Shown: positions 6,148 through 55,335 of the stretch, one piece after another
Position numbering within the stretch: position 1 is the first letter of the stretch
Layout of the letters: each line of letters starts with the position of its first letter
Assembly: GCA_030628945.1 (NCBI GenBank)
Contig: DAOVPY010000002.1
Span: 87,831 to 151,830 of the forward strand
Direction of reading: 5' to 3'
Length of the DNA stretch: 64,000 bases
Source of the DNA: Candidatus Nealsonbacteria bacterium
GTDB lineage: Bacteria; Patescibacteriota; Minisyncoccia; Minisyncoccales; DAOVPY01
Notes under the pieces: model-generated
Databases searched by the model: none
Told to the model about the DNA's origin: nothing
The model's input: only the letters and a program-made list of their open reading frames with translations
Program-made: the position numbers and the translations under genes

Positions 6148-7992
6148 TTAGATTATTTGTTTTTTCGACCTTTGTGCAATTTTCTTAATTAAAGGAATCT
6201 TGCCTTCTGGCATTAGCACTTCTTCCGAAGGCAATATTGGTTCTGGTTCTCTCGGCGGCAATACAACCGGCTTCAGCGCTTTTGGCTTTGGCTCCGGCCG
6301 TGATTCTTTTTCCTCTTCCTCCTCTTCTAATAAAAGATCTTCATATTGGCTTTTGTCGCATTCCTCCAAAATTAACTTCTGAAGAGTTCTTTTCCTGGTC
6401 TTCCATTTCTTTACTGATTCAGCGTCATTTAGGTCCGGTTTATCTTCTGCCACAAATATCTTATAAAGCAATAGCGCTTCATCCTTTCTCTGCTCTGGTG
6501 TTCTGTAGGGCTTCGGTTCAATCTCTACTCTGGCATCTACTTTTATTTTTTTATCTTTTTGCGTAAATTCCTTGAAATCTATTTCTTTGCCAACTAATCT
6601 GTAAGCTTTTTCTTTTGTCAAAAATTCTTGATTTAACTCAATCAGATTATTTACTAATCGAGTTGTTACAATTCCAAGCTGTCGCACCAATAAACTAAAT
6701 CTAATATTGGTCTGCATTAATAAGAGTTCCACTTTGCCCATTGGTTCTTGTTTTGATTTCGGCAGACCTGTTGCGTATTCTGAAATCGCCAGCGATGATT
6801 GAATTTCTTTTCTTAACAGATTATCTTTTTCTATCCATTGTTTGCTTATTTCGGGTGGTTTCTCTGTCACTACATCATCGACATTATCCAATTCCCAAAC
6901 CGCTCCTGGCTTATATTTAATATCATCAGCAACTAAGTGAGCTTTTTTCCTTAATTTCCGAACAGGATCAAGAGTGAAAACAATGTCGTCCATCGCTTGA
7001 TTTCTGGAATCTGCGATTTCAATAATGGTTGTTTCTACCGGCTCGATGTGTCCGATTGACCATAATTCCCAAAGCACAGCGTGGTCTGATAGTTTAAGAA
7101 AAGTCCTGCCGTTATTCACATTCTTATAGGGATTATCATCGTATCTAATTAGTTCCTCTTGGTTAACAATTACTAACAGCTTACCTTCCTCGTGGTCCCA
7201 AATTTGTAAAATCTCCAGTTTTTCTTCGGTTATCTTTTCTTCTGATTTTGTGCCTTCTTTTTCTCCGCCTTTCGCAATCTGCCCCATTTTTTTAGTATTA
7301 ATTTCGTATCTCTCTTTGCGCGGGTCATCAGTAATTTTTTTATTTTGGACTTTATCTAAATTACTATAAATCTTATTATTGCCTCTTTTCTTTTCTTCTT
7401 TTTCTAATTGCCCTTTTGTTTTGTAACTTAACTGAATTTCGTATCTGCTGTCTTTCTGCAGGTCGGTCGCTTCGGGGTCCGGATAGAAAAGCCAAAGGTC
7501 TTGAATCACTAAAAAGGGAGCGCCGTTATCCTCGTCATCCTTACTTGTGCCCCAAGTTAACTGAGCGACTCCATCTCCGAATTCTAATGTGGAATTAATC
7601 AAGTCAATCTTTTTGTCTGAAAACTCTATTGTATCTAAATTGTGTTTAATTAAATCGTCCCACGATTCTAATGATTTTGATTTTACATCTTTTTTAAATC
7701 GAGGTAGTATTCTCACATTTACCTTTGCCGCTGCTAATCTCGGTTTGACTGTTTCCACAATCTCAAAGGCAATCGGAGGCATTAGATTGGTATTATAAGC
7801 GTAGTTCGTCTTATCCCGATAGGCGCGATAAAGATAAGCCATCCGCAACCATTTCTCCTGGTATGGCTTGCGGAAATCTCTGGCTTTTTTGAATTTCTTT
7901 TTCCATTTATCAACAATCTCTTTTCTCTTTTTTTCATCTAAGCTATCGAGTGTTACTTGTTTTGTTATTTGTTTTGTTTTTTCTTTTGGCAT
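6148..7992 (-). CDS. Portal protein candidate
   Basis: 614 aa, first large gene after the large terminase. Size and position are typical; charged low-complexity C-terminal tail. No motif-level proof. Confidence 0.6.
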   Translation of the reverse strand: MPKEKTKQITKQVTLDSLDEKKRKEIVDKWKKKFKKARDFRKPYQEKWLRMAYLYRAYRDKTNYAYNTNLMPPIAFEIVETVKPRLAAAKVNVRILPRFKKDVKSKSLESWDDLIKHNLDTIEFSDKKIDLINSTLEFGDGVAQLTWGTSKDDEDNGAPFLVIQDLWLFYPDPEATDLQKDSRYEIQLSYKTKGQLEKEEKKRGNNKIYSNLDKVQNKKITDDPRKERYEINTKKMGQIAKGGEKEGTKSEEKITEEKLEILQIWDHEEGKLLVIVNQEELIRYDDNPYKNVNNGRTFLKLSDHAVLWELWSIGHIEPVETTIIEIADSRNQAMDDIVFTLDPVRKLRKKAHLVADDIKYKPGAVWELDNVDDVVTEKPPEISKQWIEKDNLLRKEIQSSLAISEYATGLPKSKQEPMGKVELLLMQTNIRFSLLVRQLGIVTTRLVNNLIELNQEFLTKEKAYRLVGKEIDFKEFTQKDKKIKVDARVEIEPKPYRTPEQRKDEALLLYKIFVAEDKPDLNDAESVKKWKTRKRTLQKLILEECDKSQYEDLLLEEEEEEKESRPEPKPKALKPVVLPPREPEPILPSEEVLMPEGKIPLIKKIAQRSKKQII

Positions 7993-13863: not shown

Positions 13864-13876
13864 TTGATTTTAATTG

Positions 13877-13949
13877 TGGCGCAGGGCAGGAATTGAACCT
13901 ACCTATTCTGGCTTATGAGGCCAGCGTGATACCGTCTCACTCCCGCGCC
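13877..13949 (-). tRNA. tRNA-Met (anticodon CAT; could be lysidine-type Ile2)
   Basis: Cloverleaf read by eye: D stem GTGA/TCAC, anticodon arm CTGGC-CTCATAA-GCCAG, T arm GTAGG-TTCAATT-CCTGC. The acceptor can be drawn with 8 bp. No encoded CCA. Confidence 0.8.
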
Positions 13950-23980: not shown

Positions 23981-24814
23981 TTACCGCTTTTTTGACGACT
24001 TGTTTTTTGACGACTTGGCCGGCTTTGTCCTCGCCGAAGAAAACTTTTTCTTGCGAATTATGTCCGGCTTTTTTGCCTTTCTGGACTTTTTCTCTTTTGC
24101 CAAAGGCTTAACTCTCGGAAATTTCTCTTTTACTTTAAATGACTCTGAAAGCAAAGAAAAATGTTCAATTAAAATTTCCGAGGCCTGAAAAAAAGCGCTT
24201 TGCGGGCTTAGAGTTCCATCTGTCTCAATTTCTAAAATCAATTTATCAAAATCTGTCCGCTCCCCCACTCTCATATTTTCAATTTCATAGCTCACTTTTT
24301 TAATTGGGGTAAAAATCGCGTCCAAAGCAATAACCCCGATCTCTAATTTTTCCTTCTTTCTCCTTTCAACCGGCTCATAGCCCATTCCTTTTTTAATTAA
24401 AATTTCCATTTCTATGGCTGCTTTTTTGTCAGTTAGGGTCGCAATATGAGCATTTTTATTAATAAGTTCTACCTGGGAAGGAAATTTAAAGTCAGAACCC
24501 CTTATTTTTTTCTCCCCCTTAATGGAAAGAGTCGCGGAAACCGGCTCCTCAGTGTAAATCTTGAATCTCAACTGCTTTAAATTCATCATAATTGTAATCA
24601 CATCCTCCAGTACGCCGGGAATGGTTGAAAATTCATGTTGAATGCCTTTAATTTTCATCTGAATAACGGCCGCTCCAGACAAAGAAGATAATAAAACGCG
24701 GCGCAAACTATTGCCGATAGTAATGCCATAGCCCGGATATAAGCCGCTCATGCTAAACCGGGCATGGTTATCTCCTGTTTTAATAATTTTTGGCAAAGAT
24801 GGTAAAGAAATCAT
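23981..24814 (-). CDS. rpoA: RNA polymerase alpha subunit: N-terminal domain only, with a Lys-rich tail
   Basis: GYGITIGNSLRRVLLSSL and the rest of the alpha-NTD. The last ~50 aa are KEKKSRKAKKP...SSKNKSSKKR, with no helix-hairpin-helix CTD. Confidence 0.9.
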   Translation of the reverse strand: MISLPSLPKIIKTGDNHARFSMSGLYPGYGITIGNSLRRVLLSSLSGAAVIQMKIKGIQHEFSTIPGVLEDVITIMMNLKQLRFKIYTEEPVSATLSIKGEKKIRGSDFKFPSQVELINKNAHIATLTDKKAAIEMEILIKKGMGYEPVERRKKEKLEIGVIALDAIFTPIKKVSYEIENMRVGERTDFDKLILEIETDGTLSPQSAFFQASEILIEHFSLLSESFKVKEKFPRVKPLAKEKKSRKAKKPDIIRKKKFSSARTKPAKSSKNKSSKKR

Positions 24815-24944
24815 ACTTTAAAAATGTAAAGCTGAAAGCGAAAAATTTAAAGCAACAGTTCAAAACTTAAAACTTTTAATTAAATTTTGTTTTGAATTTT
24901 TAGTTGTTATTTTGCTTTTTTCGCTTTACACTTTACACTTTAGT

Positions 24945-25595
24945 TTATCGTGAATAATACTCAAATACTGCCGCGATTTCCACTGGCGGCGCCGCTTCTT
25001 CCAGGGAAGGCAAATCAATAATCTCTCCCTCTATCTTCTCTATATCAAATTTAAGCCAGGAAGGCGGCTGTCTTTTCTTCAAGGATGGAATTAAATCCTG
25101 AAAAAATTTCTTTTTTAAGGAAACTGCCCTGATAGCGATTTTGTCTCCCTTTTTCAGCGGATGAGACGGAATATTTACCGGCTTCTTATTTACAAGAAAA
25201 TGGCCGTAAGAAACTATTTGCCGCGACTGGGACCGGGAGGAAGCGAAACCGAGTCGAAAAATTACATTATCTAAACGGGTCTCTAATTTTCTGATTAAAA
25301 CAACGGCTGAATTTGCTTCTTCGGTTGAATCCCCTGTTTTCCCTCTTGTTGCCAAACTTTCTTTTACATATCTTTTGAATTGATGTTCGCTTAAATTATA
25401 CCATTTTTTTAATTTCTGTTTTTCTTTCAACTCTTTTCCATACTCAGAAAGAGAGCGGGCTCTTCTTTTTCCTTTTATGCCAGGGGCATAGGGTTTCCTT
25501 ACCATGGGACATTTAGACGACGTACATTTGTCGCCTTTGAGAAAAAGTTTTGCCCCCAATCTTCTACATATTTTACATTTATTATTAGTCAACAT
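24945..25595 (-). CDS. rpsD: 30S ribosomal protein S4
   Basis: MLTNNKCKICRRLGAKLFLKGDKC... Start moved from the GTG-extended ORF to the ATG at 25595. Confidence 0.9.
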   Translation of the reverse strand: MLTNNKCKICRRLGAKLFLKGDKCTSSKCPMVRKPYAPGIKGKRRARSLSEYGKELKEKQKLKKWYNLSEHQFKRYVKESLATRGKTGDSTEEANSAVVLIRKLETRLDNVIFRLGFASSRSQSRQIVSYGHFLVNKKPVNIPSHPLKKGDKIAIRAVSLKKKFFQDLIPSLKKRQPPSWLKFDIEKIEGEIIDLPSLEEAAPPVEIAAVFEYYSR

Positions 25596-26183: not shown

Positions 26184-26573
26184 TTACTTGGGGGCGGGCG
26201 CCGCTTTCTTGCCGCTACCCACTGTTTTTCTAACATTTCCCCGCACTGTCCTTGTATTGGTTTGGGTTTTCTGTCCCCGCGCCGGCAAACCCTTTATATG
26301 GCGAATTCCTCGCCAACAACTAATATCTCTTAATCGTTTTAAGGCGAGCATTTTCTCCCGACGGAGAGTTCCTTCAATTTTATATCTTTTTTCAATAATT
26401 TCTCTTAATTGATTTACTTCCTCTGACGTTAATTTGGAGGAGCGAGCGTGAAAATCAATTTTTATTTCACGCAAAATTTTCCTGCTCAAAGACCGGCCTA
26501 TTCCGTAGATGTAGGTTAGGGCTATCTCTATCTGTTTATTCTCTGGTATATTGACTCCAGCTATACGTGGCAT
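26184..26573 (-). CDS. rpsM: 30S ribosomal protein S13
   Basis: [26 protein letters not shown]... Confidence 0.95.
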
Positions 26574-26620
26574 AAAACTTTAAAATTTTTAATTTTTAAT
26601 TTTTAATTTTTAAAATATTA

Positions 26621-26780
26621 AAGCGAGGAATGTGGTTTCAGGGACACTCAAGGCTGCGAGCGGGCATGGTTCCGAGCGAACGGAGCGAGCGAGGAGAGCG
26701 AGTAATTTATTCTGCCTTGCGTGAGCGAGCCAGCCACGCTGGGGCTGGCGAGCGACCCCTGAAACCAGCATTCCGAGCGT
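26621..26780. repeat. GGAATGTGGTTT-type structured intergenic element, copy A (GC-rich core)
   Basis: Terminal inverted repeats gaggaatgtggtttcaggg / ccctgaaaccagcattccgagcg. Abuts the rpmJ stop. Confidence 0.7.
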
Positions 26781-26940: not shown

Positions 26941-27480
26941 TTACCCATATATTGGATTATTTTGGTCTTCTTTTGCTTTTTTCTTTGCGTCTTCTTTTTC
27001 GTGCAAATACTGCACCAGCCAATATTCAGGATAAGCCGCGTCAACCAATTCTTCAATTCTTTCTACTTGAGCAATAGAAACCTTATCGCGAGTTTTTTCA
27101 AACTTAAAAGATTGCGCTTTTAATTCGTCTGATGCTTCTTCTCCATATTCCGCCAAAATACTAGGTATTTCTTGCTTTTTGCCGTTTACTTCAACCAATT
27201 CTGTTTTAAATCCCAATTTTGCCCAATCCCTATGCTGCAATCCAAATAAACGACGCATTGTTTCCGCGTATTTTTTTTCATCCACGGAAGCTGTCTCTAA
27301 AAACTTTGCCAAATGTTTTTGGGCATTTTCTCTTTTTCCTATTTCCTCGGAATTAAGATTTTCCAGATATGATTTTGTGATTTCTTCCAATTCTTTTTCT
27401 TTGCCTTCTAAAATTTCCTGGTCTGTTAATTGAGCTCCTGATTCTTGCTTTGGACATTTTTTTTCAATTGAATTTCGCAT
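26941..27480 (-). CDS. Hypothetical protein inserted between infA and rpmJ
   Basis: 179-aa charged ORF. Start moved to the ATG 17 nt after the infA stop. No motif recognised. Confidence 0.5.
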   Translation of the reverse strand: MRNSIEKKCPKQESGAQLTDQEILEGKEKELEEITKSYLENLNSEEIGKRENAQKHLAKFLETASVDEKKYAETMRRLFGLQHRDWAKLGFKTELVEVNGKKQEIPSILAEYGEEASDELKAQSFKFEKTRDKVSIAQVERIEELVDAAYPEYWLVQYLHEKEDAKKKAKEDQNNPIYG

Positions 27481-27496
27481 ATTTTTTTGTTTATAA

Positions 27497-27736
27497 CTAC
27501 TTTCCGCGATACACAATTCTGCCCCGGGTTTCGTCGTAAGGGGTCATTTCTACTGTTACCTTGTCGCCGGCTAAAATTTTAATCCTGTATATCCGAAGCC
27601 GCCCGGCTAAATGAGCCAAAATCTCCTTTCCATCGTCTAATTTAACTCTGAACAACAAACTGGGCAGGGTTTCCAAAACAATGCCTTGTTTTATTATTTT
27701 GCCCTTGCGTTTTGAATTCTTATTATTTTGGTCCAT
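27497..27736 (-). CDS. infA: Translation initiation factor IF-1
   Basis: [31 protein letters not shown]...[19 protein letters not shown]. Confidence 0.95.
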
Positions 27737-27777: not shown

Positions 27778-29583
27778 TCACTCCAAAATTGCTCTTATTC
27801 TTCTCACCCCTGCGCTTGATGATTGTTCTTTTACAATCTTAAACCTGCCCAACTCCCCGGTTCTTTTCGCATGGGGACCCGCGCAAATTTCTTTAGAAAA
27901 CCCGCCAATTGAATAAACACTCACTTTTTCCGGATATTTTTCTCTAAAGAATGCTAATGCGTTGGATTTTATCGCTTCTTGATAAAACATCTCCTCTTTT
28001 TTAACAATCAAATCTTGTTTAATTTTTTGATTAACTAAATCCTCAACTTTTTTTAATTCGTCGGAAGTCATCTTCCGTTCAAAAGAAAAATCAAATCTTA
28101 ATCGTTCCAAGTTAATATCCGAACCCATCTGCTTTACTTGTTCGCCTAAAATCTCTCTTAAAGCAGAATGTAACAAATGGGTGGCAGTATGAAGTTCCGC
28201 TGAAAACTCTCCACCGCCCCCAAATTTCTTTTCTTTTCCTGCGCGGGAAATTTCCTGATGCTGTTTCAGCGCCTTATTAAAACCTTGCTCATCTACTTTC
28301 CTGCCACGTTCTTTCGCCATTTCTTTGAGCATCTCAATGGGAAATCCATAGGTCTGGTATAAATCAAACGCTTGTTTTCCGGAAATATCTCCTTGAGCAA
28401 CTACTGAACTCGTTTCTTTCATGCCTGTATCCAGCGCTTTCTTAAATTTTTCCTCCTCTTTCTGAATTACTGTCAAAATATCCGCTTGTTTTGACTGAAC
28501 CTCTGGATAGATATCTTTATAAATCTCAATTACTTTCTGGGCTAAAGGAATTAAAAATCCCGGCTTTGCTCCTAAAATTTTTCCATAACGCATCGCCCTC
28601 CTCAAAAGCCGGCGCAAAACATAACCCTGTTCCACGTTTAACGGCAAAATGCCTTCGCTGATTAAAAAAACCGCGGCCCGAATATGGTCGGCGATAATTC
28701 TATAGTTTGTAGTTTGTAGTTTGTAGTTTGTAGAAGAAATTTTTTCTAATTCTTGAATAATTGGTAAAAATAAATCTGTTTCGTAAGCCGAAGCTTTATT
28801 TTGCAAAATTGCCGCCATTCTTTCCAACCCCATTCCGGTATCCACGCTCTTCTGCGGCAGTAATTGATATTTTCCGTTTTTGTCTTTGTAATATTGGATA
28901 AAAACCAAATTCCATATTTCTATAAATCTCTGGCAATGAACACAATTCGGTGCGCAATCTTTTCTATTACAGCCGAATTTTTCTCCCCTGTCAAAAAAAA
29001 TCTCTGAATTCGGTCCGCAAACGCCAACCTCTCCTACCGGGCCCCAAAGATTGTCTTCTTTGCCAAATTCCTTTATTCTTTCCTTTGGGATATTATTTTC
29101 CTGCCAAATTTTTAGCGACTCTTCATCTCTTGGAATACCCCCACTACCAAAATTTTGGTGTGGGGGTAAATCTTTATTTCCCTTGAAAATAGTCGGATAT
29201 AATTTGTTTTTGTCAAATCCTAGTTCGTTCACTAGGAATTCAAGCGCAAACTTTATGGCTCCCTCTTTAAAATAATTTCCATTTTCGTCCTGGCCGATAG
29301 ACCAATTGCCCAACATCTCAAAAAAAGTGTGATGGGTATCGTCGCCTATTTCTCCAATATCATCGCTGCGAAAGCATTTCTGGCAGTCAACTAAATGTTG
29401 CGAGCCAAATTTTTTAATCGGGTCTTGCTTCCCTTCCAGCTCCAAAGCAAACTGCTGCATCCCGGCAGTGGTAAATAGAACGCTGGAATCAGGGGGCATT
29501 AACGAAAACGAAGGCGCTGTTTTATGCCCTCTTTTCTCAAAAAACTTTAAAAACTTTTCCCGCAATTCCTTTGACGCCATCAT
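27778..29583 (-). CDS. alaS: Alanine--tRNA ligase, lacking the C-terminal C-Ala/DHHA1 region
   Basis: Class II core (FTTAGMQQF), editing-site HTATHLLH and CAGPH. Ends right after GVRRIRAILE. Start moved to MMASKELREKF. Confidence 0.9.
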   Translation of the reverse strand: MMASKELREKFLKFFEKRGHKTAPSFSLMPPDSSVLFTTAGMQQFALELEGKQDPIKKFGSQHLVDCQKCFRSDDIGEIGDDTHHTFFEMLGNWSIGQDENGNYFKEGAIKFALEFLVNELGFDKNKLYPTIFKGNKDLPPHQNFGSGGIPRDEESLKIWQENNIPKERIKEFGKEDNLWGPVGEVGVCGPNSEIFFDRGEKFGCNRKDCAPNCVHCQRFIEIWNLVFIQYYKDKNGKYQLLPQKSVDTGMGLERMAAILQNKASAYETDLFLPIIQELEKISSTNYKLQTTNYRIIADHIRAAVFLISEGILPLNVEQGYVLRRLLRRAMRYGKILGAKPGFLIPLAQKVIEIYKDIYPEVQSKQADILTVIQKEEEKFKKALDTGMKETSSVVAQGDISGKQAFDLYQTYGFPIEMLKEMAKERGRKVDEQGFNKALKQHQEISRAGKEKKFGGGGEFSAELHTATHLLHSALREILGEQVKQMGSDINLERLRFDFSFERKMTSDELKKVEDLVNQKIKQDLIVKKEEMFYQEAIKSNALAFFREKYPEKVSVYSIGGFSKEICAGPHAKRTGELGRFKIVKEQSSSAGVRRIRAILE

Positions 29584-31881: not shown

Positions 31882-32574
31882 CTATGCCGCGGCTTTAATT
31901 ATTTTAATGAATTCTTGGGGATCCAAAGATGCCCCGCCCACTAATAATCCGTTCATCCCCGCCTCTTTGAGATAACCGCGAGCATTTTTGGAATTCACGC
32001 TTCCACCATAAAGAATTGGAATATTTGTTTTCAATGTTTTCCTAATCAAAGCGCTCATTTTTCTTGCTTTCTCTATACTGCAGGGCCTGCCGGTGCCGAT
32101 GGCAAAGACCGGCTCATACGCCAAAACTAAATTTTTGAATTGTTTTTTTGAAAGACCCTTTATGTCTTTTTTAATTTGAGACACTTTGTCAACGCACAAA
32201 ATAACGTTCAAATTATTTTCCAGCGCGGCTTTTATTTTCTTATTGACGAGTTCATCGGTTTCCTGAAAATATTTCCTTCTTTCAGAATGGCCGACAATAA
32301 CATATTTACAACCTAAATCTTTCAGCATTCCAGGTGAAACCTCGCCGGTAAAAGCGCCTTTTTCCTCCCAAAAACAATTCTGTCCTCCCAACTTAATAAT
32401 TGATAACTGATTATTAATTACTGATAGATACTGAAACGGCGGACAAATCACTACCTCTGCCTTTTTATTCTTTATTTTCCTTAGTCCTTTTTCTATAGAA
32501 CTAAAAATCCGATTAGCTTCGGCTAATGTTTGCGGATTCATCTTCCAGTTGGCTATAATAAGTGATTTACTCAT
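31882..32574 (-). CDS. tpiA: Triosephosphate isomerase
   Basis: IIANWKMN, VGHSERR, AYEPVFAIGTG, ILYGGSV. Confidence 0.95.
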   Translation of the reverse strand: MSKSLIIANWKMNPQTLAEANRIFSSIEKGLRKIKNKKAEVVICPPFQYLSVINNQLSIIKLGGQNCFWEEKGAFTGEVSPGMLKDLGCKYVIVGHSERRKYFQETDELVNKKIKAALENNLNVILCVDKVSQIKKDIKGLSKKQFKNLVLAYEPVFAIGTGRPCSIEKARKMSALIRKTLKTNIPILYGGSVNSKNARGYLKEAGMNGLLVGGASLDPQEFIKIIKAAA

Positions 32575-32591
32575 AATTTTGTTTTAAAAAT

Positions 32592-32718
32592 GAGGAATGT
32601 GGTTTCAGGGACATATTGTAAGCGAGGCGAATGAAAATTTTTAGTATGGGGTGGTTGGGTGGGTCTAATTACTAAAAATTTTCATTTGCCGAGCGATATA
32701 AAACCAGCATTCCGAATG
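32592..32718. repeat. GGAATGTGGTTT-type structured intergenic element, copy B
   Basis: About 90% identical by eye to copy C. Nested inverted repeats ggaatgtggttt/aaaccagcattcc and aatgaaaatttttagta/tactaaaaattttcatt. Confidence 0.8.
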
Positions 32719-32723
32719 AATTA

Positions 32724-33812
32724 TTATTGTTTCCGAAGATATTCGGCCGCTTTTTCCGGTTCAATCGTGGAAATTTCCATCATAGTGCCGATTTCAAACC
32801 CGGCCCAGGTTGACGTTTTTGGCAAAATGGTCCAATGCCAATGATAATCAGGATATTTCTTTCCATCGCAAGGCGCGGTGTGAAGATAAAAATTATAAGC
32901 CGGGTCGTTCAATCCCTTGTAAATCTTGCTCAGAGCGTTTTGAAACGCTTGCGCCAGATGTTGTTTTTCTTTTTCTGTAATTTTCTCAAAATAAGGAAGA
33001 TGCTTTTTAGGCGAAATAATAACCTCAAAAGCTCTTTTGGAGGCAAAAGGGCAAATAACCAGGAAATCTTTATTTTCAAAAATTTTCCTTTTTTTGCTTT
33101 TTCTCTCCCATTCACACATTAAACAATAAACACATTTTTTGTGAACCCTGAAATACTTTTTAGAATTGTGAATCGCTTTTTTTAAATCCGTATCAATAAG
33201 AGGGGTGGTAATAATCTGAGAATGAGGATGAACAATTGAAGCGCCGGCTTCTATTCCGTGATTATGAAAAACAGAAATATAATTCACGAATTTTTCCTTC
33301 ATCAGCCATAAATATCTCTCTTGATAAACATCAATCACCTCTTTAATTTGGCTCACCGAGAATTGAGCCATTTGCTTGCTATGCTCCCGGGTAATCACTA
33401 CTTCGTGAAAGCCAACCGCGCTGAGTTTTTCATACAATCCTCCCTCAATATGTTTATCTATTCTGGACCCTGGAACAAAAGCCGGATATTTATTCGGCAC
33501 AACTATGGTAGTCCATTGTCGCGGAACTCCTTCATCAGCTCTAAATTCCTTTTTTTTACCATTATTGAAAACTAAAACAGGTCTTCCCTGACTGGAAATA
33601 TTACAAAAAGGACAAGCGCTTTTGGAAATTTTTTCTATTTTTCTTCTCTCTTTCTTAAATGTCTCCGGCCTCCGAGCCCGACCCGTGGCAATGACAACCC
33701 AATCCTTGCTCGCCAGGTCAAAACGGAGTTCAGATGGAAATTTCGTTTGTTTGAATTTTGAGCTTGATTTGGCATAATTTGGCATAATTTGGATTTTGGA
33801 TTTCTCAATCAT
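32724..33812 (-). CDS. galT: Galactose-1-phosphate uridylyltransferase (HIT family)
   Basis: CPFC zinc site and the HPHSQI active-site motif. The start may be the internal Met at 33785. Confidence 0.8.
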   Translation of the reverse strand: MIEKSKIQIMPNYAKSSSKFKQTKFPSELRFDLASKDWVVIATGRARRPETFKKERRKIEKISKSACPFCNISSQGRPVLVFNNGKKKEFRADEGVPRQWTTIVVPNKYPAFVPGSRIDKHIEGGLYEKLSAVGFHEVVITREHSKQMAQFSVSQIKEVIDVYQERYLWLMKEKFVNYISVFHNHGIEAGASIVHPHSQIITTPLIDTDLKKAIHNSKKYFRVHKKCVYCLMCEWERKSKKRKIFENKDFLVICPFASKRAFEVIISPKKHLPYFEKITEKEKQHLAQAFQNALSKIYKGLNDPAYNFYLHTAPCDGKKYPDYHWHWTILPKTSTWAGFEIGTMMEISTIEPEKAAEYLRKQ

Positions 33813-34524: not shown

Positions 34525-34574
34525 ATATTTGTTTTCAAGCGAGCGAAAAAAAAGGTTATAGCTTTACTATATTT

Positions 34575-38680: not shown

Positions 38681-39223
38681 TTACGTTGTGGTTATTGCTT
38701 TCTTCCCCACCTTCTTCCTTACCTTTTCCCCAACATATCTTATTCCTTTTCCTTTATACGGCTCTGGCGGCCGCGTTTTTCTTATTTTTGCCGCAATTAG
38801 GCCCACCAGTTGTTTATTAATTCCAAAAATAGTAATAATATTTTTTTCTACTTTGAATTTTATGCCTTTTGGCGCTTCAATTTTTACCGGATGCGTGAAC
38901 CCAATTGTCAAAACTAAATTCTCGCCCTCTAATGAGGCCTTATAGCCAATGCCTTTAATTTCCAGCTTCTTCTCATATCCGCTAACCACCCCGTTGAGCA
39001 TATTGGCTAAAAGAGCCCGCGTTAAACCCCAGAATGCTTTAGTCTGCTTAGTCTCCATGCCCGGCGAAACATAAATTTTGTCTTTTTTAATTTCAATATT
39101 AATTTCGGGTCGAATCTCTTGCGAAAGTTCGCCCTTAGGACCCAAAACTGTCACTTTTCCATCCTCAATCTTTACTTCAACGTTGTGTGGTATTTCAATT
39201 GGCTTTTTTCCAATACGAGACAT
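38681..39223 (-). CDS. rplF: 50S ribosomal protein L6
   Basis: [14 protein letters not shown]... Confidence 0.95.
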
Positions 39224-39365
39224 AATAAATTTTTAATTTTTAATTTTTAATTTTTAAATAATTTTTAATGTCTTAATTTTTAAACCTGGAAATTGAATAA
39301 TAAAGTTTTAGAATTTAAAATTTAGAATTGATTTAGAATTTAAAATTTAGAATTTAGAATTTTAT

Positions 39366-39952: not shown

Positions 39953-40525
39953 TTACTTTTTAATGGGAAATCCCATTAACTTTAATAATTCTAATCCTTC
40001 TTCCTTGTTCTTAGCGGTTGTAGCAACGGTTATCTCTAATCCAAAAATATTCCTGGTCTTTTCCGGTAAAATCTCGGGAAAAACAATATGTTCTTTTAAT
40101 CCGACAGTCAAATTTCCTTGCCCATCAACCGACTTTTGGTTAATTCCTTGAAAATCGCGGGATCGGGGAAGGGCAATATGAATAAGCCGCTCCAAAAAAT
40201 CATCCATTTTTTTTCTTCTTAAAGTAATTGTTGCCCCAATTGGCGTTCCCTCTCTAAGCTTAAAAGCGGCAATTGATTTTTTAGCTTTGGTTAAAACCGG
40301 CTGCTGTCCGGCGATAATGGCTAAATCGTTTAAAATAGATTTAGAAATTTTTTTTTGCTCGTCCTTGGTCTTTCCGCCAATTAATCTCCCAAAGCCGGTG
40401 TTTATTACCACTTTTTGAATACGCGGAACAGCCATATCATTAGTATAGCCAAACTTTTTCTTCATCTCGGGCACAACCTCGCTTTTATATTTGTCTTTAA
40501 GGTTTAACATAGTATCTTGCAACAT
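39953..40525 (-). CDS. rplE: 50S ribosomal protein L5
   Basis: VPRIQKVVINTG.G...; ITLRRKKMDDFLERL. Confidence 0.95.
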   Translation of the reverse strand: MLQDTMLNLKDKYKSEVVPEMKKKFGYTNDMAVPRIQKVVINTGFGRLIGGKTKDEQKKISKSILNDLAIIAGQQPVLTKAKKSIAAFKLREGTPIGATITLRRKKMDDFLERLIHIALPRSRDFQGINQKSVDGQGNLTVGLKEHIVFPEILPEKTRNIFGLEITVATTAKNKEEGLELLKLMGFPIKK

Positions 40526-40604
40526 GTAACTTGTAACCTATAACCTAAAAATTTTTAATTTATTTTTTCTTGAGTTTCAAGTTACAGGTTACAGGTTTCG
40601 AGAT

Positions 40605-40910
40605 TTATATTTCTTGGTTGCATTTCTTGCACACTCTGTACTTCTTTTTCCCTTCAACCTTATATCCCACCCTTGTTGCTTTTCCGCACTTTGAGCAGAT
40701 TAGTTTAACGTTAGAAACCGAAATTGGACCCGGCGTCTCCACAACTTGACCCTTTTCTCCCTGTTTCTTGGGCCGAACATGTTTTTTTCTTATGTTAATG
40801 CCTTCCACCGCAATCTTCTCCTCACGCGGAAAAGCATCCAAAACCTTACCTTTTCTGTTGCGGTCTTTTCCTGAAATTATTAAAACAATGTCATCTTTTT
40901 TAATCTTCAT
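40605..40910 (-). CDS. rplX: 50S ribosomal protein L24 with C-terminal zinc ribbon
   Basis: [22 protein letters not shown]; CSKCG...CKKC. Confidence 0.9.
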
Positions 40911-43748: not shown

Positions 43749-44585
43749 TTATTTCTTTTTTCTCTTTTGTCGTCTCTTGATGATAAGTTTATCTGTCCAC
43801 TTCTTTTTTCTTGTCTTCACGCCGCGAGCCGGCTTGCCCCAAGGCGTTTTTGGGCCGGGCATCCCGATTGGCGCCCTGCCTTCTCCTCCGCCGTGAGGAT
43901 GGTCGGCAGGCACCATCGCGCTCCCCCGCACCGTGGGTCTTCGGCCTTTGCGGCGCGACCTTCCAGCTTTCCCTATTTTTACAAAAACATGCTCGGGATT
44001 TGACACCATCCCAATTGAAGCAAAACAATCTTCCCGCACTCGCTTTATCTCAGTTGAAGACAGCTTAAGATGGCTGTAACCCCCTTCCAAAGCCAAAACC
44101 TTTGCCGAAGTTCCGGCTCCTCGCGCTAATTTTCCTCCTCTGCCAGGCTCAATCTCTATATTATAAACCGCAGTTCCTATTGGAATATTTTTTAGCTTCA
44201 TTCTGTTGCCAACGCGGATTTCGGTTTTTTCGCCCGCGATTATTTCATCGTCCTTTTTCAAACCATGGGGAGCAATAATATATTTTTTTTCTCCATCCTG
44301 ATATTTTACCAAGGCGATGAAAGCGGCTCTATAGGGGTCGTATTCCACAGCCGCGACCTTTGCCGGAACATTTAATTTTTCCCGTGTAAAATCAATAAGC
44401 CGATAAAGTTTTTTGACACCGGCGCCCTGGTGTCTGGTAGTAATCCTGCCCTGTGAATTTCTTCCGGCTCTCCTTTTCAAAGCCAAAAGCAAACTCTTTT
44501 CGGGTTTCTTTTTCCTGGTCAGAACCGAAAAATCCTCTCTCGTGGCTCCTCTTCTTCCCGGCGTTGTTGGCTTGTATAATTTCAT
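43749..44585 (-). CDS. rplB: 50S ribosomal protein L2
   Basis: ...GSAMVPADHPHGGGEGR. Confidence 0.95.
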   Translation of the reverse strand: MKLYKPTTPGRRGATREDFSVLTRKKKPEKSLLLALKRRAGRNSQGRITTRHQGAGVKKLYRLIDFTREKLNVPAKVAAVEYDPYRAAFIALVKYQDGEKKYIIAPHGLKKDDEIIAGEKTEIRVGNRMKLKNIPIGTAVYNIEIEPGRGGKLARGAGTSAKVLALEGGYSHLKLSSTEIKRVREDCFASIGMVSNPEHVFVKIGKAGRSRRKGRRPTVRGSAMVPADHPHGGGEGRAPIGMPGPKTPWGKPARGVKTRKKKWTDKLIIKRRQKRKKK

Positions 44586-44771
44586 GCTCTAAATTTCTAA
44601 TTTCTAATATCTAATTGACCTAATCAAATCCCAAATCCCAATTTCTAATGTCTAACTTTTTTGGTCATTGGTTATTGGACATTGGGTATTGATTAGACAT
44701 TAGGTTAATTAGGAATTAGGAATTTTTAACTTTTTTGTTGTAGTTTTGGCTTTTGTGTTTTGTGTTTTGTA

Positions 44772-45275
44772 TTATCTTGGTAAAACTTCAATCTTCTGCC
44801 CCTCTTTGACCTTCACAATGGCTTTTTTGTATCCCTTTTTCCAGCCTGTAATTCTTCCCAACCGCCTATGACGTCTATGAACGTTGATAATTCTAACGCC
44901 AATAACGTCTACATTATAAAGACCTTCAACTGCTTTTTTGACTTCAATCTTGTTGGCTCTGGGCAAAATCTTAAAAGTATATTGGTTCTTCGCGACTAAA
45001 TCCGTTGCTTTTTCGGAAACATGGGGCGATTTTAAAACTCGATAAGCCGTACCCGAAATTTTTGCGCGCGGTTTTGAAACTTTCGGCTTTACCCTGTTAA
45101 ATTGCTTTGCGCCAGCTTCGCTGGATTTAACAGGGTGAATTTCTTTTCTCTCTTCAACCGCCTTTTCTTTTTTTATTTTTCTTGGTTTTTCCTCAACTCT
45201 AATCTTAGGGGCTTTTTTCTCCTCTTTTGGCTTTTCCTCTTTCTTCTTTTTTCTGAAAAAATCAAACAAACTCAT
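44772..45275 (-). CDS. rplW: 50S ribosomal protein L23 with ~75-aa Lys/Glu-rich N-terminal extension
   Basis: VLKSPHVSEKATDLVAKNQYTFKI...KIEVKKAVEGLYNV. Confidence 0.9.
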   Translation of the reverse strand: MSLFDFFRKKKKEEKPKEEKKAPKIRVEEKPRKIKKEKAVEERKEIHPVKSSEAGAKQFNRVKPKVSKPRAKISGTAYRVLKSPHVSEKATDLVAKNQYTFKILPRANKIEVKKAVEGLYNVDVIGVRIINVHRRHRRLGRITGWKKGYKKAIVKVKEGQKIEVLPR

Positions 45276-45955
45276 TTTATAAATGTATCTTTAATTATCT
45301 TTATTGCTTCTTTCGGGAGCATTAAATACTTATAACTCAATATGTCCAGACAATTCAAGTCCTTTGCAAGAATTGTCGTTGCCTTTGGCAAATTCCTCGC
45401 TGCCCTGATTATATTTTCATCCATTTTCGGCAAGGCAATTAAAAAACTTTCTTGTTTTTTAGTTTTTGAGCTTTTTGCTTTTGAGTTGCGAATCTGATTG
45501 ATGGACTTATTCGCGCGAATAAGTCTTACGATATTCGCCGCTTCCTTTGTCTTTGCTTTTTCTAATTTCAATTTATCTAAAATAATTATTTCGCTGTCTT
45601 TCGCTTTTTGGCTCAAAACCATAAATAATGCCTTTCTCCGCATTTTTTGAGGAATAATTTTTTTGAAATTTCGTTCATTCGTGGGCCCGAATGTAATACC
45701 GCCGCCCCGCCATATCGGCGAACGCCGCGAACCGGCTCGCGCCCTGCCTGTTCCTTTCTGGCGCCAGGGCTTTCGTCCCCCGCCGCGAACGTCTCCCCTG
45801 CCTTTTGTGTGCGCTGAAACCTGCCGCCTGTTCCCCATTTGCGAAACAACAACCTGATGGACCAGATCGGAATTAAAAGACACCTCAAAGAGCTCTTTGG
45901 GCAATGCTGTTTTTCCAGTTTCTTCGCCTTTTTGATTATAAACCTTGACAAACAT
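45272..45955 (-). CDS. rplD: 50S ribosomal protein L4
   Basis: MFVKVYNQKGEE...GGGRKPWRQKGTGRAR. Start moved to the ATG at 45955; the longer ORF-track start lies inside the inserted cassette. Confidence 0.9.
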   Translation of the reverse strand: MFVKVYNQKGEETGKTALPKELFEVSFNSDLVHQVVVSQMGNRRQVSAHTKGRGDVRGGGRKPWRQKGTGRARAGSRRSPIWRGGGITFGPTNERNFKKIIPQKMRRKALFMVLSQKAKDSEIIILDKLKLEKAKTKEAANIVRLIRANKSINQIRNSKAKSSKTKKQESFLIALPKMDENIIRAARNLPKATTILAKDLNCLDILSYKYLMLPKEAIKIIKDTFIK

Positions 45956-45973
45956 AATATAATTTGTTATGAT
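45945..45973 (+). promoter_or_regulatory. Consensus sigma-70-like promoter P1 (antisense to the S10 operon)
   Basis: TTGACA, 17 nt, TATGAT, followed by AGGAGG and an ATG. Confidence 0.6.
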
Positions 45974-45994
45974 AATTTCAGGAGGTAAAATGGG

Positions 45995-46132
45995 ATGACA
46001 ATAGAAATAACCGAACAAGCGAGAGGCGCGTTGTTTAAAGTAATAGCGGAAGGCATGCCCGAGAAGTTAGGAATGTCTGAAGAGGAGCGCATAACTCTTG
46101 GGCTGGAACTTTCGCAGAAGCCAAAAAAGTGA
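45995..46132 (+). CDS. Small protein (45 aa) of the antisense cassette
   Basis: MTIEITEQARGALFKVIAEGMPEKLGMSEEERITLGLELSQKPKK. AGGAGG lies 8 nt upstream of the ATG, with its own promoter and terminator. Confidence 0.5.
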   Translation: MTIEITEQARGALFKVIAEGMPEKLGMSEEERITLGLELSQKPKK

Positions 46133-46252: not shown

Positions 46253-46281
46253 TTGACAAACATAATATAATTTGTTATGAT
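46253..46281 (+). promoter_or_regulatory. Promoter P2, identical copy of P1, pointing into antisense rplC
   Basis: Second copy of the 47-bp repeat (46253-46299). Confidence 0.5.
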
Positions 46282-46399
46282 AATTTCAGGAGGTAAAATT
46301 TATTGAAAGGAAAAATGTAATAAATAAGAGTGCCGTCAAAGGAGGTTAGCAATGCCACAGAGGGTTGGCAAAACAAAACCAGGGCGGCGCTTTTTTTTA

Positions 46400-47421: not shown

Positions 47422-48621
47422 CTATTTTATAATTTTGGTGACTACTCCGGCTCCAACTGTCTTTCCCCCCTCTCTGATGGCAAATCTCTGTTTTTCCTCA
47501 AGGGCAACCGGCGCAATCAATTTAACTTTTAAATTAACAGTGTCTCCCGGCATAACCATTTCCGTGCCTTCGGGCAAAGTGACATCGCCGGTCACGTCAG
47601 TGGTCCGAATGTAAAACTGAGGCTTGTATCCCGCGAAAAACGGAGTATGGCGGCCTCCTTCCTCTTTACTCAAAATATAAATTTCTCCTTCAAATTCAGT
47701 GTGAGGGGTGATTGAACCGGGTTTTGCCAAAACTTGGCCTCTTTCCACTTCTTCTTTCTTAAATCCTCTTAAAAGAATACCAACATTGTCTCCTGCCCTT
47801 CCCTCATCCAATATTTTATTAAACATCTCAATGCTAACAGCCGTAGTTTTCTTGGTTGGCCGCAATCCTATTAATTCCACCTCTTCATTGGCATGGACTA
47901 TTCCTCTTTCAACTCTCCCCGTGGGAACGGTTCCTCTTCCGGCAATAGAAAAGACATCCTCAATAGCCATTAAAAAGGGCTTGTCTATGTCCCGTGTCGG
48001 CTCTGGAATATGCTCATCCACGGCTTTCATCAACTCAAAAATCGGTTTGGCGACTTCGTCGTCTGCTGTTTTCGCATCTATGGCCTTTAGGGCAGAACCC
48101 CTGATTATAGGAATCTTATCCCCGGGATAATTATATTTCTTCAAAAGCTCCCGCACCTCGGATTCCACTAAATCAATAATTTCCGGGTCGTCCACCATAT
48201 CGCACTTATTCAAAAAAACCACTAATGAAGGCAAACCCACCTGGCGCGCCAGCAAAATATGTTCTCTGGTTTGGGGCATTGGCCCGTCCGGCGCAGAAAC
48301 CACTAAAATCGCGCCGTCCATCTGAGCCGCGCCGGTAATCATATTCTTGATATAGTCGGCGTGGCCCGGGCAATCAATATGCGCGTAATGCCGCTTTTCG
48401 GTCTCGTATTCCAAATGAGCGACATTAATGGTCAAGCCGCGCGCTTTTTCCTCGGGCGCCGAATCAATCTGGTCCACGCTTTTCTCGCTGCATTTCCAGC
48501 CCTTTAACTTAAAGACGTGGAGAATAGCCGCGGTGAGCGTGGTTTTGCCATGGTCAACATGACCAATGGTGCCGATATTAAGATGAGGTTTCCCTCTCTC
48601 AAATTTTTCTTTCTCTGCCAT
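47422..48621 (-). CDS. tuf: Elongation factor Tu
   Basis: [27 protein letters not shown]. Confidence 0.98.
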
Positions 48622-48716
48622 AATAAATTATGAAACTTGAAACTTGAAACTTGAAACTTAATTAAAAGGTTACAGGTTTCAGGCTGCAGATTTCAAAAAT
48701 TTGTTAATATGTTTTT

Positions 48717-50911: not shown

Positions 50912-51018
50912 AATTTTTATAGTTTTTTATTGATAAAATTTTAAACCCGACCTTTTTATCTACTATTTTTATAGTATCTAAAAATAGCATTATGGTCAAA
51001 TAAACTTTGGGGTTTTAG

Positions 51019-51146
51019 CGAAGAATGTGGTTTTTGGGATAAATTGTAAGCGAGGCTAATGAAAATTTTTAGTATGGGGTGGTCTGGGTGGGTCTATTAC
51101 TAAAAATTTTCATTTGCCGAGCGATATAAAACCATATTCCGAGCGA
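51019..51146. repeat. GGAATGTGGTTT-type structured intergenic element, copy C
   Basis: Abuts the fusA stop codon; near-identical to copy B. Confidence 0.8.
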
Positions 51147-53255
51147 TTACCGGCGTTTGCCTTCCGCGATTTCCCGGGCAATGTTGCCCGGGACTTCCTC
51201 ATATTTGTCAAATTCCATAGTAAAGGTTCCTCTGCCCTCTGTAAGAGAGCGGAGCGAAGTGGCGTAGCCGAACATCTCTGCCAAGGGAACCTTGGCGTCA
51301 ATCACTTTCAAATTCAAGCGGTCGCTTGTTTCTTCTATTTTGCCGCGCCGCGCGCTCAAATTGCCCATCACGTCTCCTAAAAAGTTTTCCGGGACAATTA
51401 CTTCCAGTTTCATAATCGGTTCCAAAAGAATCGGCTTGGCTCTTTTTGTCGCGCTTTGCAATGCCTGGGAACCGGCAATTTTAAAAGCGATTTCCGAAGA
51501 ATCAACTTCATGGAAAGAGCCATCATATAAAGCAACGCTCATATCTATCAATGGATAGCCGGCAACCACGCCTTTTAACATTGCCTCTTTAATTCCTTTT
51601 TCAACAGCCGGAATAAACTCCTTGGGAATAATTCCGCCTTTAATTTCGTCAATAAATTCAAAGCCCTGTCCTCTTTCTTTTGACTCAACCCTGAGCCAGA
51701 CATGGCCGTATTGGCCCCTGCCTCCTGACTGGCGAATATATTTTCCTTCGGCTTCGGCTTCTGTTTTTATCGTCTCTTTGTAGGCAACCTGGGGCCTGCC
51801 CACGCTCGCTTCAACTTTAAATTCTCTTTTCATTCTGTCCACTAAAATATCCAGATGAAGTTCGCCCATTCCGGAAATAATGGTTTCTCCCGTATCAGGG
51901 TCGCCTTTTATTCTGAAAGTCGGGTCTTCCTCGGCCAAACGATGAAGAGCCATGCCCATTTTTTCCTGATCTGCTTTTGTTTTCGGCTCAATGCGAATAG
52001 CAATAACCGGCTCAGGAAAAGTAATTTCTTCCAGAACAATCGGCACGCTGTCCGGGTCGCATAATGTATGGCCTGTGCTGGTATTTTTGAGGCCCACGGT
52101 AGCCGCGATGTCGCCGCTAAATAATTCATCCACCTCTTCTCTTTCAGCGGCATGCATCCTTAAAATCCTGCCTAAACGCTCTTTCTCTCTGGTGGTGGTA
52201 TTCAGGATATAAGAACCCTTGCTTAACGTTCCGGCATAAACCCTAAAATAAGTAAGGGCTCCCACATAAGGATCTGTGGCAACCTTGAAAGCCAGCGCGG
52301 TGAACGGCTCGCTGTCATCGGATTTCCTGCTTATTTCTTTGCCTGTTTTTGAATCAACGCCGATAATCGCCGGCAAGTCAACAGGGCTGGGAAGGTAATA
52401 AACAACTCCGTCCAGCAAAGGCTGGACTCCTGTATTTTTCAAAGCGCTCCCGCAAAAAACCGGAATAAGTTTGTAATTTATGGTTGCTTGTCTTAAAACC
52501 CGTCTTAAATCCTCAATGGAAATTTCTTCGCGCGCCAGATATTTTTCCAGCAAATTTTCGTCTTCCGCAGCGATTTTCTCAACCATTTTGTCCCGCCATT
52601 TATGCGCTTTTTCCAATAAGCCAGAAGGGATTTCTTCTAATTTTACTTTCTCACCCAAATTGCCTTCAAATTTCAGCGCTTTCATAGAAAACAAATCAAC
52701 CACTCCGCTTAAATTCTGTTCTTCTCCAATTGGAATCTGCACGGCGCAGGCGTTCGGAGAAAGTTTCTGGACAATGGAATTAAAACTCTTTTCAAAAGAG
52801 GCGCCTATTCTGTCCAATTTATTGATAAAACATATTCTTGGCACCTTAAACTTATCTGCCTGTCGCCACACGGTTTCTGATTGCGGCTCTACTCCGGCAA
52901 CGCCGTCAAAAACAACTACGGCGCCGTCCAGCACTCTAAGCGACCTCTGAACCTCAACGGTAAAATCAATATGGCCGGGTGTGTCAATAATGTTAAATCT
53001 ATGCTCGTTTGTTTTTTCTTTGGTTAAATATTCTTCCGGCGACCAAAAGCATGTTGTTGCCGCGGAAGTTATGGTAATCCCCCGCTCTCTTTCCTGCTCC
53101 ATCCAATCCATAATCGCTTTTCCTTCATGCACCTCGCCGATTTTGTGGGAAATCCCTGTATAAAAAAGCACCCGTTCAGTCACGGTTGTTTTCCCTGCGT
53201 CAATGTGCGCTATAATGCCAATATTTCTGTATTTTTCTATTGGATACTTTCTCAT
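51147..53255 (-). CDS. fusA: Elongation factor G
   Basis: [21 protein letters not shown]; 702 aa. Confidence 0.98.
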
Positions 53256-53288
53256 GAATTTTTAATTTTTGATTTTTCAAATTATAAA

Positions 53289-53320
53289 GCAAGGAATGTG
53301 GTTTTTGGGACATTCCTTGC
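53289..53320. repeat. Mini-hairpin version of the GGAATGTGGTTT element (copy D)
   Basis: gcaaggaatgt-ggtttttggg-acattccttgc, a perfect 11-bp stem just after the rpsG stop. Confidence 0.6.
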
Positions 53321-53323
53321 GAT

Positions 53324-55137: not shown

Positions 55138-55291
55138 TTTTTCTCACCCCTACTTTTTCCTTTATTTCGTTTTACCCCCACACCAAAATTTTGATGACGG
55201 GAATAAACCCACATACCACTAACTAAAATTTTGGTAGTGGGAGTTTTCAACGAACTTTATTACACAATAAACAATTGAAAAATCTTGTCAA

Positions 55292-55319: not shown

Positions 55320-55335
55320 GTCAACCCCGCAAAGT

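Follow-up and report, generated by a model that had tools for sequence, protein, structure and literature searches.

Modular palindromic repeats adjoining stop codons in a Parcubacteria genome

Four hairpin elements and their anatomy

We analyzed a stretch of 64,000 nucleotides (nt) from contig DAOVPY010000002.1 (assembly GCA_030628945.1), referred to below as the window, which carries four palindromic elements, A, B, C and D, directly behind the stop codons of genes. The host is a metagenome-assembled genome (MAG) of the Parcubacteria, members of the candidate phyla radiation (CPR), and the nearest named homologs of its EF-G and GalT proteins, 82-83% identical, come from MAGs of the Parcubacteria/Minisyncoccales. 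The window has a G+C content of 39% with a strongly negative GC skew on the plus strand, and the minus strand carries 82 of its 88 open reading frames (ORFs; greedy ORF set). Window coordinates are converted to those of the ENA record ERZ23498683 scaffold_23 (144,953 bp) by adding 72,621.

All four elements lie on the minus strand, as do all the genes that flank them, and are read here in mRNA sense (Table 1). Based on Pfam matches, A is located between the genes for ribosomal proteins L36 (rpmJ; stop codon at 26781-83) and S13 (rpsM), with the (AAAAAUU)n leader of rpsM behind it. B is located between a gene for a GalT-like protein (a GalT/HIT-type uridylyltransferase; stop codon at 32724-26, with a second in-frame UAA at 32721-23) and the gene for triose-phosphate isomerase (tpiA), whose start is 14 nt ahead. 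C follows the gene for EF-G (fusA; stop codon at 51147-49), and D is located between the genes for S7 (rpsG; stop codon at 53324-26) and EF-G. An earlier note, made from the letters of the window alone, had placed four copies at these sites and named these flanking genes, and both statements hold. With the feet described below included, the units begin 1 nt (A), 5 nt (B, 2 nt after the second stop codon), 1 nt (C) and 2 nt (D) from the stop codon of the preceding gene. The claim of the note that every copy starts 0-5 nt after the stop codon of a minus-strand gene thus stands with corrected unit limits, while its description of these genes as highly expressed is an assumption in the case of the GalT-like gene.

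Table 1. Positions in the window of the four elements, their internal modules and one neighboring promoter-like site.
Feature	Position	Strand	Basis
Element A, long type, 158 nt	26622-26779	-	sequence, fold, flanking genes
Inner hairpin of A, UCGCU-C-GCCAGCC..GGCUGGC-UCGCU, with the foot motif of the outer stem	26723-26756	-	sequence, motif positions
Degenerate short module in the GC-rich core of A, CGGAACCAUGCC-CGCUCG-CAG-CCUUGAG	26647-26674	-	motif match at 26672
Element B, long type, 130 nt	32589-32718	-	sequence, fold, pair count
Inner nested hairpin of B, UCGCU-C-GGCAAAUGAAAAUUUUUAGUA, C-rich loop, UACUAAAAAUUUUCAUUCGCC-UCGCU	32621-32696	-	exact 17-nt inverted repeat, structure
Element C, long type, 129 nt, near copy of B	51017-51145	-	sequence, fold, comparison with L030
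Inner nested hairpin of C, module as in B	51049-51124	-	inverted repeat, structure
Element D, mini version, 34 nt	53288-53321	-	sequence, fold, 17/17 match to C arm, pair count
Promoter-like TTGACC-17-TACTAT, directly downstream of C, in a spacer 89% conserved with L030	50971-50999	-	context, not element

The layout of a long copy in the mRNA is stop - N(1-5) - CGCUC - GGAAUG... ...CAUUCC - UCGCU, and the limits of the unit are 5'-CGCUCGG ... CCUCGCU-3'; element A, for example, reads CGCUC-GGAAUGCUGGUUUCAGGGG ... CCCUGAAACCACAUUCC-UCGCU. Terminal inverted repeats are present as arms of 17-20 nt, GGAAUG(C)UGGUUUCAGGG / CCCUGAAACCACAUUCC. The termini given in the earlier note end before the conserved feet CGCUC / UCGCU are reached; these feet belong to the hairpin, and we corrected the unit limits to include them. 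The base of the hairpin consists of a 2-bp clamp (GC/GC; AU/AU in B), followed by a conserved 2x2 UC/UC internal loop and then by the main stem. In B the feet are CAUUC / UCAUU in place of CGCUC / UCGCU, and its AU/AU appears better read as a double compensatory change of the clamp. In D they are CGCAA/UUGCU, so that both sides are changed and are complementary rather than identical, with AA/UU closing the loop. Both tips of the long type and its 3' arm (GUCCCAAAAACCACAUUCC) are retained in D, 17 of 17 positions matching the arm of C, and D reads as a putative internal-deletion derivative of that type. Since the flanks pair across the UC/UC loop and recur on nested hairpins, they belong to the element and not to its target.

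The four sites are connected by their arms as well as by their location. The 12-mer GGAATGTGGTTT occurs in the window at these sites only, in three exact arms and two arms with one mismatch, while by our calculation ~0.008 exact occurrences are expected in 128 kb. B and C are 88% identical without gaps over 115 nt, or 93.8% over 113 nt by local alignment (E=7e-40), in line with the ~90% over ~127 nt given before, and the nested inverted repeat that had been noticed in them is exact over 17 nt in both. The interior of the elements is modular, with same-footed hairpins nested inside A, B and C, and yet the interiors of A and of B and C are wholly different. The core of A is rich in GAGCGA, as the note had it: the window has 15 occurrences of this hexamer, six of them in A and nine in A, B and C together, and 11 of its reverse complement, none of which is in these three elements. 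The degenerate module in this core resembles the module AGAACCUGCC-UCGCUAACGCUCG-GCAGAACCUUGA of related genomes and gives weak local matches to modules in two of them (L030 and L040, see below), which we regard as a resemblance only.

All four elements fold better than shuffled sequences do. In mRNA sense, the fold energies are -66.2 kcal/mol for A (z = -4.3; -4.27), -36.0 for B (z = -7.8), -31.8 for C (z = -6.6; -6.65) and -15.6 for D (z = -6.3), and folding bears out that D is a perfect 11-bp hairpin. No known Rfam family accounts for the elements: the covariance models gave nothing at these sites in the window, either at the gathering threshold or at E<=5, and no match to six loci of relatives at the gathering threshold or to the modules of the relative L038 at E<=10. 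The scan for intrinsic terminators reported none of the four, which have no U-tract and have 3' flanks such as UCGCUUUAAUAU, and the promoter scan listed no promoter-like site within or next to the elements. Together with 9.4 kb of additional contig, we read about 73 kb of the source genome, and found no further copies in either the window or the additional contig. The host DNA (42 kb) holds four of the four copies, and the phage-like DNA (~32 kb) none. Apart from a site at 34538, UCGCU is not enriched in the window spacers outside the elements. This site, an uninterrupted AGCGAGCGA at 34538-34546 (UCGCUCGCU in mRNA sense) in the 50-nt spacer between map and a GT2 gene, is the only foot-like spacer motif outside the elements, and might be an unoccupied site, a footprint or a chance occurrence.

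Related genomes and public collections

We compared the window with loci of related genomes, cited here by their locus numbers. The closest relative found is L030, with an EF-G 90% identical and a nucleotide identity of ~83%; L034 and L040 are both from one second genome, GCA_030612885.1, and L034 and L038 are from relatives ~88% identical to each other. In L030, the spacer found downstream of C in the window comes directly after the fusA stop codon (L030 12076-12177 versus window 51006-50906, 89% identical), and window positions 51007-51148 have no counterpart between L030 12074 and 12076, so that C is an insertion relative to L030. The promoter-like site downstream of C marks the native spacer into which C was inserted. 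L030 is also without D, and has a small antisense gene between rpsG and fusA instead; in the assembly of a second sample (L024), D is identical. L021 and L022, which have an identical L36, have a different rpmJ-rpsM spacer of 103 nt. Filled and empty sites are seen among the relatives as well: L038 has a 190-nt insert where L034 reads 'CAG UAA C AUG', and L034 has a long element where L038 has an unrelated AT-rich hairpin.

The second genome, GCA_030612885.1, carries three long elements with the same feet, after rplC, at the end of rplY and after rplF, the third of which differs from the other two. The element after rplC (in L034) reads CGCUCGGAAAG...CUUUCCUCGCU and has a fold energy of -69 kcal/mol (z = -6.9). 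By our count, the rplY copy (in L040) is identical to it at ~140 of ~150 aligned positions between the feet (~93%; the mean column identity is 91% over 193 columns with flanks included). As these two copies are alike exactly from CGCUCGG to CCUCGCUU and their flanks are unrelated, there is no target-site duplication. The rplY copy provides the last five codons of rplY together with its stop codon (IRSEK and stop).

In addition, the relatives carry short modules in which the half-sites are in permuted order, ..CUGCC-UCGCU-AA-CGCUC-GGCAG.. (CCUCGC-UAA-CGCUCGG), usually within AAGAACCUGC[loop]GCAGAACCUUGA. Two such modules in L030 give ..LPR and UAA to rplE and to a YafQ-like gene, and permuted half-sites can donate a stop codon and C-terminal residues to genes. 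L038 has three short modules in tandem after rpmC, and one more whose spacer is divergent; this one is on the minus strand, ahead of a minus-strand gene, and so follows the local gene direction. In L036 the feet of the module have diverged (GCCUC ... CUCGGC) and enclose an inserted hairpin, and only the form AGAACCUGC-loop-GCAGAACCUU, without the CCUCGC/CGCUCGG half-sites, is present in L034 and L039. We estimate the chance of finding a both-footed hairpin in the ~150 kb examined to be ~1e-3. A core resembling a short module, AAACC-UCGCU-UU-CGCUC-GGUUU, is found antisense within a called coding gene in L039 (471-486, minus strand), and may be an intragenic copy or due to chance.

To count paired positions at the feet, eight hairpin bases from two genomes were chosen and trimmed by hand, with the result that 78.8% of cells are paired, compared with 59.8% in shuffles and 28-52% in slid controls. 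Six pairs are changed on both sides, and none of 500 shuffles reaches the observed score. A conserved foot motif and UC/UC loop with co-varying stems are thus seen in eight hairpins from two genomes. An imperfect extragenic palindrome with a short conserved motif at the hairpin foot is also what marks the repetitive extragenic palindromes (REP) and the REP doublets forming hairpins (REPIN).

A search for the 20-nt arm RGAATGTGGTTTYWGGGAYA in the GTDB representative genomes and in the metagenomes of the Joint Genome Institute (JGI) returned five and 15 single matches, respectively, none of which extends past the pattern. Those in L003 and L015 are within coding sequence, and the matches in these collections are chance matches. 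The core of the short module is absent from the viral contigs of IMG/VR. In the literature searched we found no paper describing such repeats, or miniature inverted-repeat transposable elements (MITEs), in CPR bacteria.

Two further observations were made at these loci. B is at a synteny break (window 32574-32724 versus L040 11038-11041): in GCA_030612885.1 the galT gene overlaps a Sm_multidrug_ex gene by 4 nt, and in the window the GalT-like gene is followed by B and then by tpiA, an RNaseH-like gene, mnmA and alaS, with map and infA on either side of this inserted block. GCA_030612885.1 also has another palindromic repeat of 127 nt (90.6%, matching in reverse), at L040 2428-2554 (rpsN-rpsH) and 7138-7262 (adk-map), the sequence of which is unrelated to A-D.

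Nature of the repeats and rival explanations

At the level of sequence, these comparisons show the elements to be dispersed, fast-turnover, modular palindromic repeats with precise ends, no target duplication and a conserved foot structure, the units of which have newly arrived at intergenic sites or at the extreme 3' ends of genes. Of the roles considered in the earlier note, that of a MITE- or REP-like mobile repeat survives in part: the near identity of B and C at unrelated loci, the absence of C in L030 and the filled and empty pairs speak for dispersed DNA of insertion type, but not for a classical MITE with a target-site duplication. We consider that A-D probably constitute a lineage-specific, non-autonomous, modular palindromic repeat, nearest in behavior to REP, to the bacterial interspersed mosaic elements (BIME) and REPIN, and to MITEs without target duplication. 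They would then be an undescribed family of a well-known kind of bacterial repeat, with permuted half-sites, the donation of stop codons and a CPR host as its unusual traits. Such repeats would spread in trans as folded single-stranded DNA, probably by means of an HUH/Y1 transposase or one like the REP-associated tyrosine transposases (RAYT), in the way of REP/REPIN with RAYT or of elements derived from the insertion sequences (IS) IS200/IS605.

Several observations weigh against this interpretation. The known copy number is low, namely, four in ~73 kb, and Pfam revealed no transposase, RAYT (Y1_Tnp-type), integrase or IS with matching ends among the called genes of the contig and the window proteins scanned, which do not include every ORF of the window. 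What links the genomes is foot motifs of 9-16 nt and not long alignments. As the exact arm is absent from the public collections, the word 'mobile' rests on comparative absence and not on observed movement. Moreover, the complementary strand folds 10-12 kcal/mol better in five of seven copies, with a tandem G.A mismatch in place of the loop, so that either strand may be the biologically relevant one. Finally, A-D are all in sense orientation, but with 82 of 88 ORFs on one strand, an orientation linked to transcription is inseparable from one linked to replication.

The position next to stop codons deserves separate consideration. Under uniform placement in the present spacers, the probability that all four copies are within 7 nt of a stop codon is ~1e-3, as calculated from the lengths of the spacers and elements. 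However, long hairpins also stand directly behind stop codons in many unrelated spacers of the window, the native spacers of these operons can measure as little as 1 nt, and the distal part of each spacer is taken up by leader or promoter sequence of the gene that follows; therefore, a special targeting mechanism is not required, and the post-stop position is not special to the A-D family. As these operons are very compact, the insertions that survived may be those that fell behind the stop codon of one gene and ahead of the leader or promoter of the following one. Several copies of the relatives overlap the end of a gene and supply its stop codon, and a UAA commonly precedes the 5' foot; a 5' foot that often carries or abuts UAA could help to account for the position. 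The elements have the sense orientation and are either within transcription units or at their ends, and if co-transcribed they would form a hairpin in the 3' untranslated region or between cistrons, most likely acting as a barrier to 3' exonucleases or as a site of processing or attenuation. The base of this hairpin would lie inside the footprint of the terminating ribosome and could thus affect termination or translational coupling. Accordingly worded, the role of an mRNA 3' stabilizer or processing site proposed in the note is plausible.

The same facts can be read the other way around, namely, that the elements are not selfish DNA but a selected cis-acting RNA module, a clade-specific post-stop hairpin repeatedly recruited by recombination because it is useful, be it as a processing site for RNase III/Y, as a terminator or attenuator without a U-tract, or as the binding site of a protein that reads the clamp and loop. 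We hold this to be possible, though less probable than the mobile-repeat interpretation; it is a live rival, and the two are not mutually exclusive. In its favor, every long copy comes directly after a stop codon or overlaps one, in sense orientation, and so does every short module with a single exception, that in L038, which still follows the direction of its gene; the UC/UC loop and the clamp are kept while the stems vary, with compensatory changes; and the proximity to stop codons is improbable under random placement. However, orthologous sites are not conserved even between close relatives, near-identical copies are found at functionally unrelated genes (GalT-like versus fusA, rplC versus rplY), a U-tract is lacking, and G.U pairs show no excess on the sense strand (9/299, versus 20/322 in antisense), while the unrelated hairpins at the same positions elsewhere in the window indicate that tolerance of insertion can explain the position. 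A more ambitious proposal, which we rate as rather unlikely, is that what we see in the elements is part of a modular 'post-stop-codon' hairpin system, clade-wide in the Parcubacteria, in which the 2-bp clamp and UC/UC loop (the G.A tandem on the other strand) would be the signature for a dedicated protein. This protein would be an RNase, an RNA-binding protein or an HUH enzyme that acts on single-stranded DNA. If true, this system would propagate modules, set translation stop sites, and govern the cutting or stabilizing of polycistronic ribosomal-protein mRNAs.

Two other explanations fare much worse. A classical MITE moved by a DDE transposase would have terminal inverted repeats of ~20 bp and a 5-bp target-site duplication (UCGCU; UCAUU in B), and the terminal inverted repeats of 17-20 nt, the 5-nt direct repeats around A (4/5 positions), B (5/5) and C (5/5), which differ in B, and the unoccupied motif in the map-GT2 gene spacer would be in keeping with it. 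However, the same 'repeat' flanks the nested inner hairpins and the elements of other genomes, the flanks of the rplC and rplY copies are unrelated outside their shared limits, the empty fusA site in L030 has no UCGCU, and the two sides of D are complementary and not identical. We rejected the 5-nt flanks as target-site duplications on these grounds. As the change in B is what a 2-bp helix predicts, and neither the window nor the flanking DNA read with it revealed a related IS, a DDE-type MITE is very improbable. The same low likelihood applies to independent genes for small RNAs, ribozymes or antisense RNAs transcribed from the elements, the small-RNA role suggested in the note finding no support here. 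Both strands fold strongly, and the antisense strand is the more stable of the two with its tandem G.A at the foot, but neither a match to Rfam nor a promoter-like site was obtained at the elements in the searches described above, and the interior of A is entirely unlike that of B and C.

Among known systems, the REP/BIME/REPIN repeats of Proteobacteria, which are mobilized by RAYT (TnpA-REP), are the most similar. Like the elements described here, they are short to medium imperfect extragenic palindromes, typically just 3' of genes in operons and co-transcribed with them, and have a variable stem with a short, conserved linear motif at its foot, a conserved mismatch, a mosaic or nested organization and no target-site duplication. 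In E. coli, REP stabilizes upstream mRNA, and within ~15 nt of the stop codon interferes with termination. REP and REPIN occur in tens to hundreds of copies per genome, and the cognate RAYT gene is usually flanked by repeats. In contrast, we see a low copy number and found no RAYT gene among the proteins scanned, the host is a CPR bacterium, and in some copies the last codons of a gene and its stop codon come from the element; in addition, the foot is CGCUC/UCGCU, unlike the GTAG of REP, and the units are single long hairpins of 130-160 nt, unlike the two inverted REPs of a REPIN.

The Correia elements of Neisseria, also called Neisseria miniature insertion sequences (NEMIS), and the enterobacterial repetitive intergenic consensus (ERIC) elements, or intergenic repeat units (IRU), are likewise palindromic intergenic repeats, of ~100-160 nt (ERIC ~127 nt), with terminal inverted repeats. 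They are co-transcribed with neighboring genes and have variants with internal deletions, comparable to D. Their hairpins are RNase targets and alter mRNA stability. However, they have IS-like ends and make a TA target duplication, while no target duplication was found here, and there is no sequence similarity. The Rickettsia palindromic elements (RPE) are also palindromic repeats of a reduced genome that can enter reading frames and add residues, but RPE insert in frame inside genes, while the elements described here affect the extreme 3' end only (..LPR and stop in L030, IRSEK and stop in L040), again without sequence similarity. The attC sites of integrons, which are recognized as folded single strands, are imperfect palindromes of variable sequence with extrahelical bases, at or a few bases from the preceding stop codon. 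Their core sites (RYYYAAC / GTTRRRY) are absent from the feet CGCUCGG / CCUCGCU, no integrase is nearby, and the neighbors here are ribosomal and translation genes, core housekeeping genes such as rpmJ, rpsG and fusA and not cassettes.

CPR bacteria have small, streamlined genomes, and to our knowledge almost nothing is known of their mRNA processing or non-autonomous mobile DNA. The repeat family described here colonizes the few nucleotides that separate genes in ribosomal-protein operons, undergoes turnover from one close relative to the next and is able to rewrite the 3' ends of genes. It could serve as a marker of strain-level evolution and as a handle on the ending and processing of transcripts in CPR bacteria. 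It also gives rise to artefacts of assembly and annotation, among them spurious ORFs and shifted stop codons. Should the conserved foot be the recognition site of a protein, it would point to a yet unnamed enzyme.

Other repeats, leaders and neighboring regions

The spacers of these operons contain several other repeats. Tandem heptamer arrays are located directly upstream of start codons at window 26577-26614, 39221-39258, 53243-53280 and 48619-48656, with (AAAAAUU)3-4 ahead of rpsM, fusA and one other gene and (UUUCAAG)3-4 ahead of tuf, and look like a recurring leader design. Past the element, A and D have ~35 nt of the heptamer leader in common (86% identical, family D5). Within the rpsM leader, immediately 3' of A, Rfam gave a sub-threshold match to Alpha_RBS (26541-26625, minus strand; 22.5 bits versus a gathering threshold of 38, E=0.54), which is probably AU-rich noise; the S4-binding leader of the alpha operon in E. 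coli has the same location. Long AT-rich hairpins stand right after stop codons, with two arms in which units of 7-8 nt are repeated in tandem and mirrored, as in (AAUUUUC)n...(GAAAUUA)n and CAUUUUAA.../...UUAAAAUG, in the window at 44583-44774, 40523-40607 and 24812-24947, and in the relatives at L034 9770-9860, 12137-12229 and 13838-13960, L038 17281-17395 and 19394-19525, and L039 9063-9234 and 12514-12720. Each genome has its own families of them, and orthologous spacers differ between close relatives. The mirrored heptamers of these hairpins suggest that fold-back copying may make palindromes de novo.

On the plus strand, and thus opposite to the surrounding genes, the 381-nt rplC-rplD spacer has a 64-nt direct repeat (88%; window 45945-46008 and 46253-46316) that holds a near-consensus promoter, a Shine-Dalgarno sequence and a start codon, TTGACAAACATAATATAATTTGTTATGATAATTTCAGGAGGTAAAATG. 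A repeated leader module, AAAGGUCGGGUU(C/U)AAAAUU...AAAAAUUAUG, is found at window 50955-50903 and 49541-49491 (minus strand) and at L030 12130-12177 and 13179-13229, ahead of small ORFs of the fusA-tuf island, namely, a Fic gene in the window and toxin-antitoxin-like genes in the relatives, and is thus kept between the window and L030. A further hairpin family, (A)CCCCCACACC-loop-GGUGUGGGGG followed by UUGAC, occurs at window 55174-55210, 55291-55327 and 29138-29174, at L036 2560-2600 and at L030 7629-7667; it includes a 39-nt stretch (window 55282-55244) 95% identical to L030, and may be associated with promoters.

Between infA and rpmJ, the window has a lysine/glutamate-rich ORF of 191 amino acids without a Pfam match (26941-27516), where L021 and L022 have a gap of 93 nt. 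The phage-like region, which has no element copies, is at least ~32 kb long and comprises window 1-22300 and the 9.4 kb upstream on the contig (L025 11112-20528), abutting rpsI/rplM. Its genes encode a SU10-type major capsid protein, a GpA-type terminase ATPase, an N6/N4 methyltransferase, ParB, a HerA/Zot-like ATPase, phage Rep_O, Rad52/22 and a PD-(D/E)XK nuclease, and a tRNA-Met gene is located inside it at 13876-13949.

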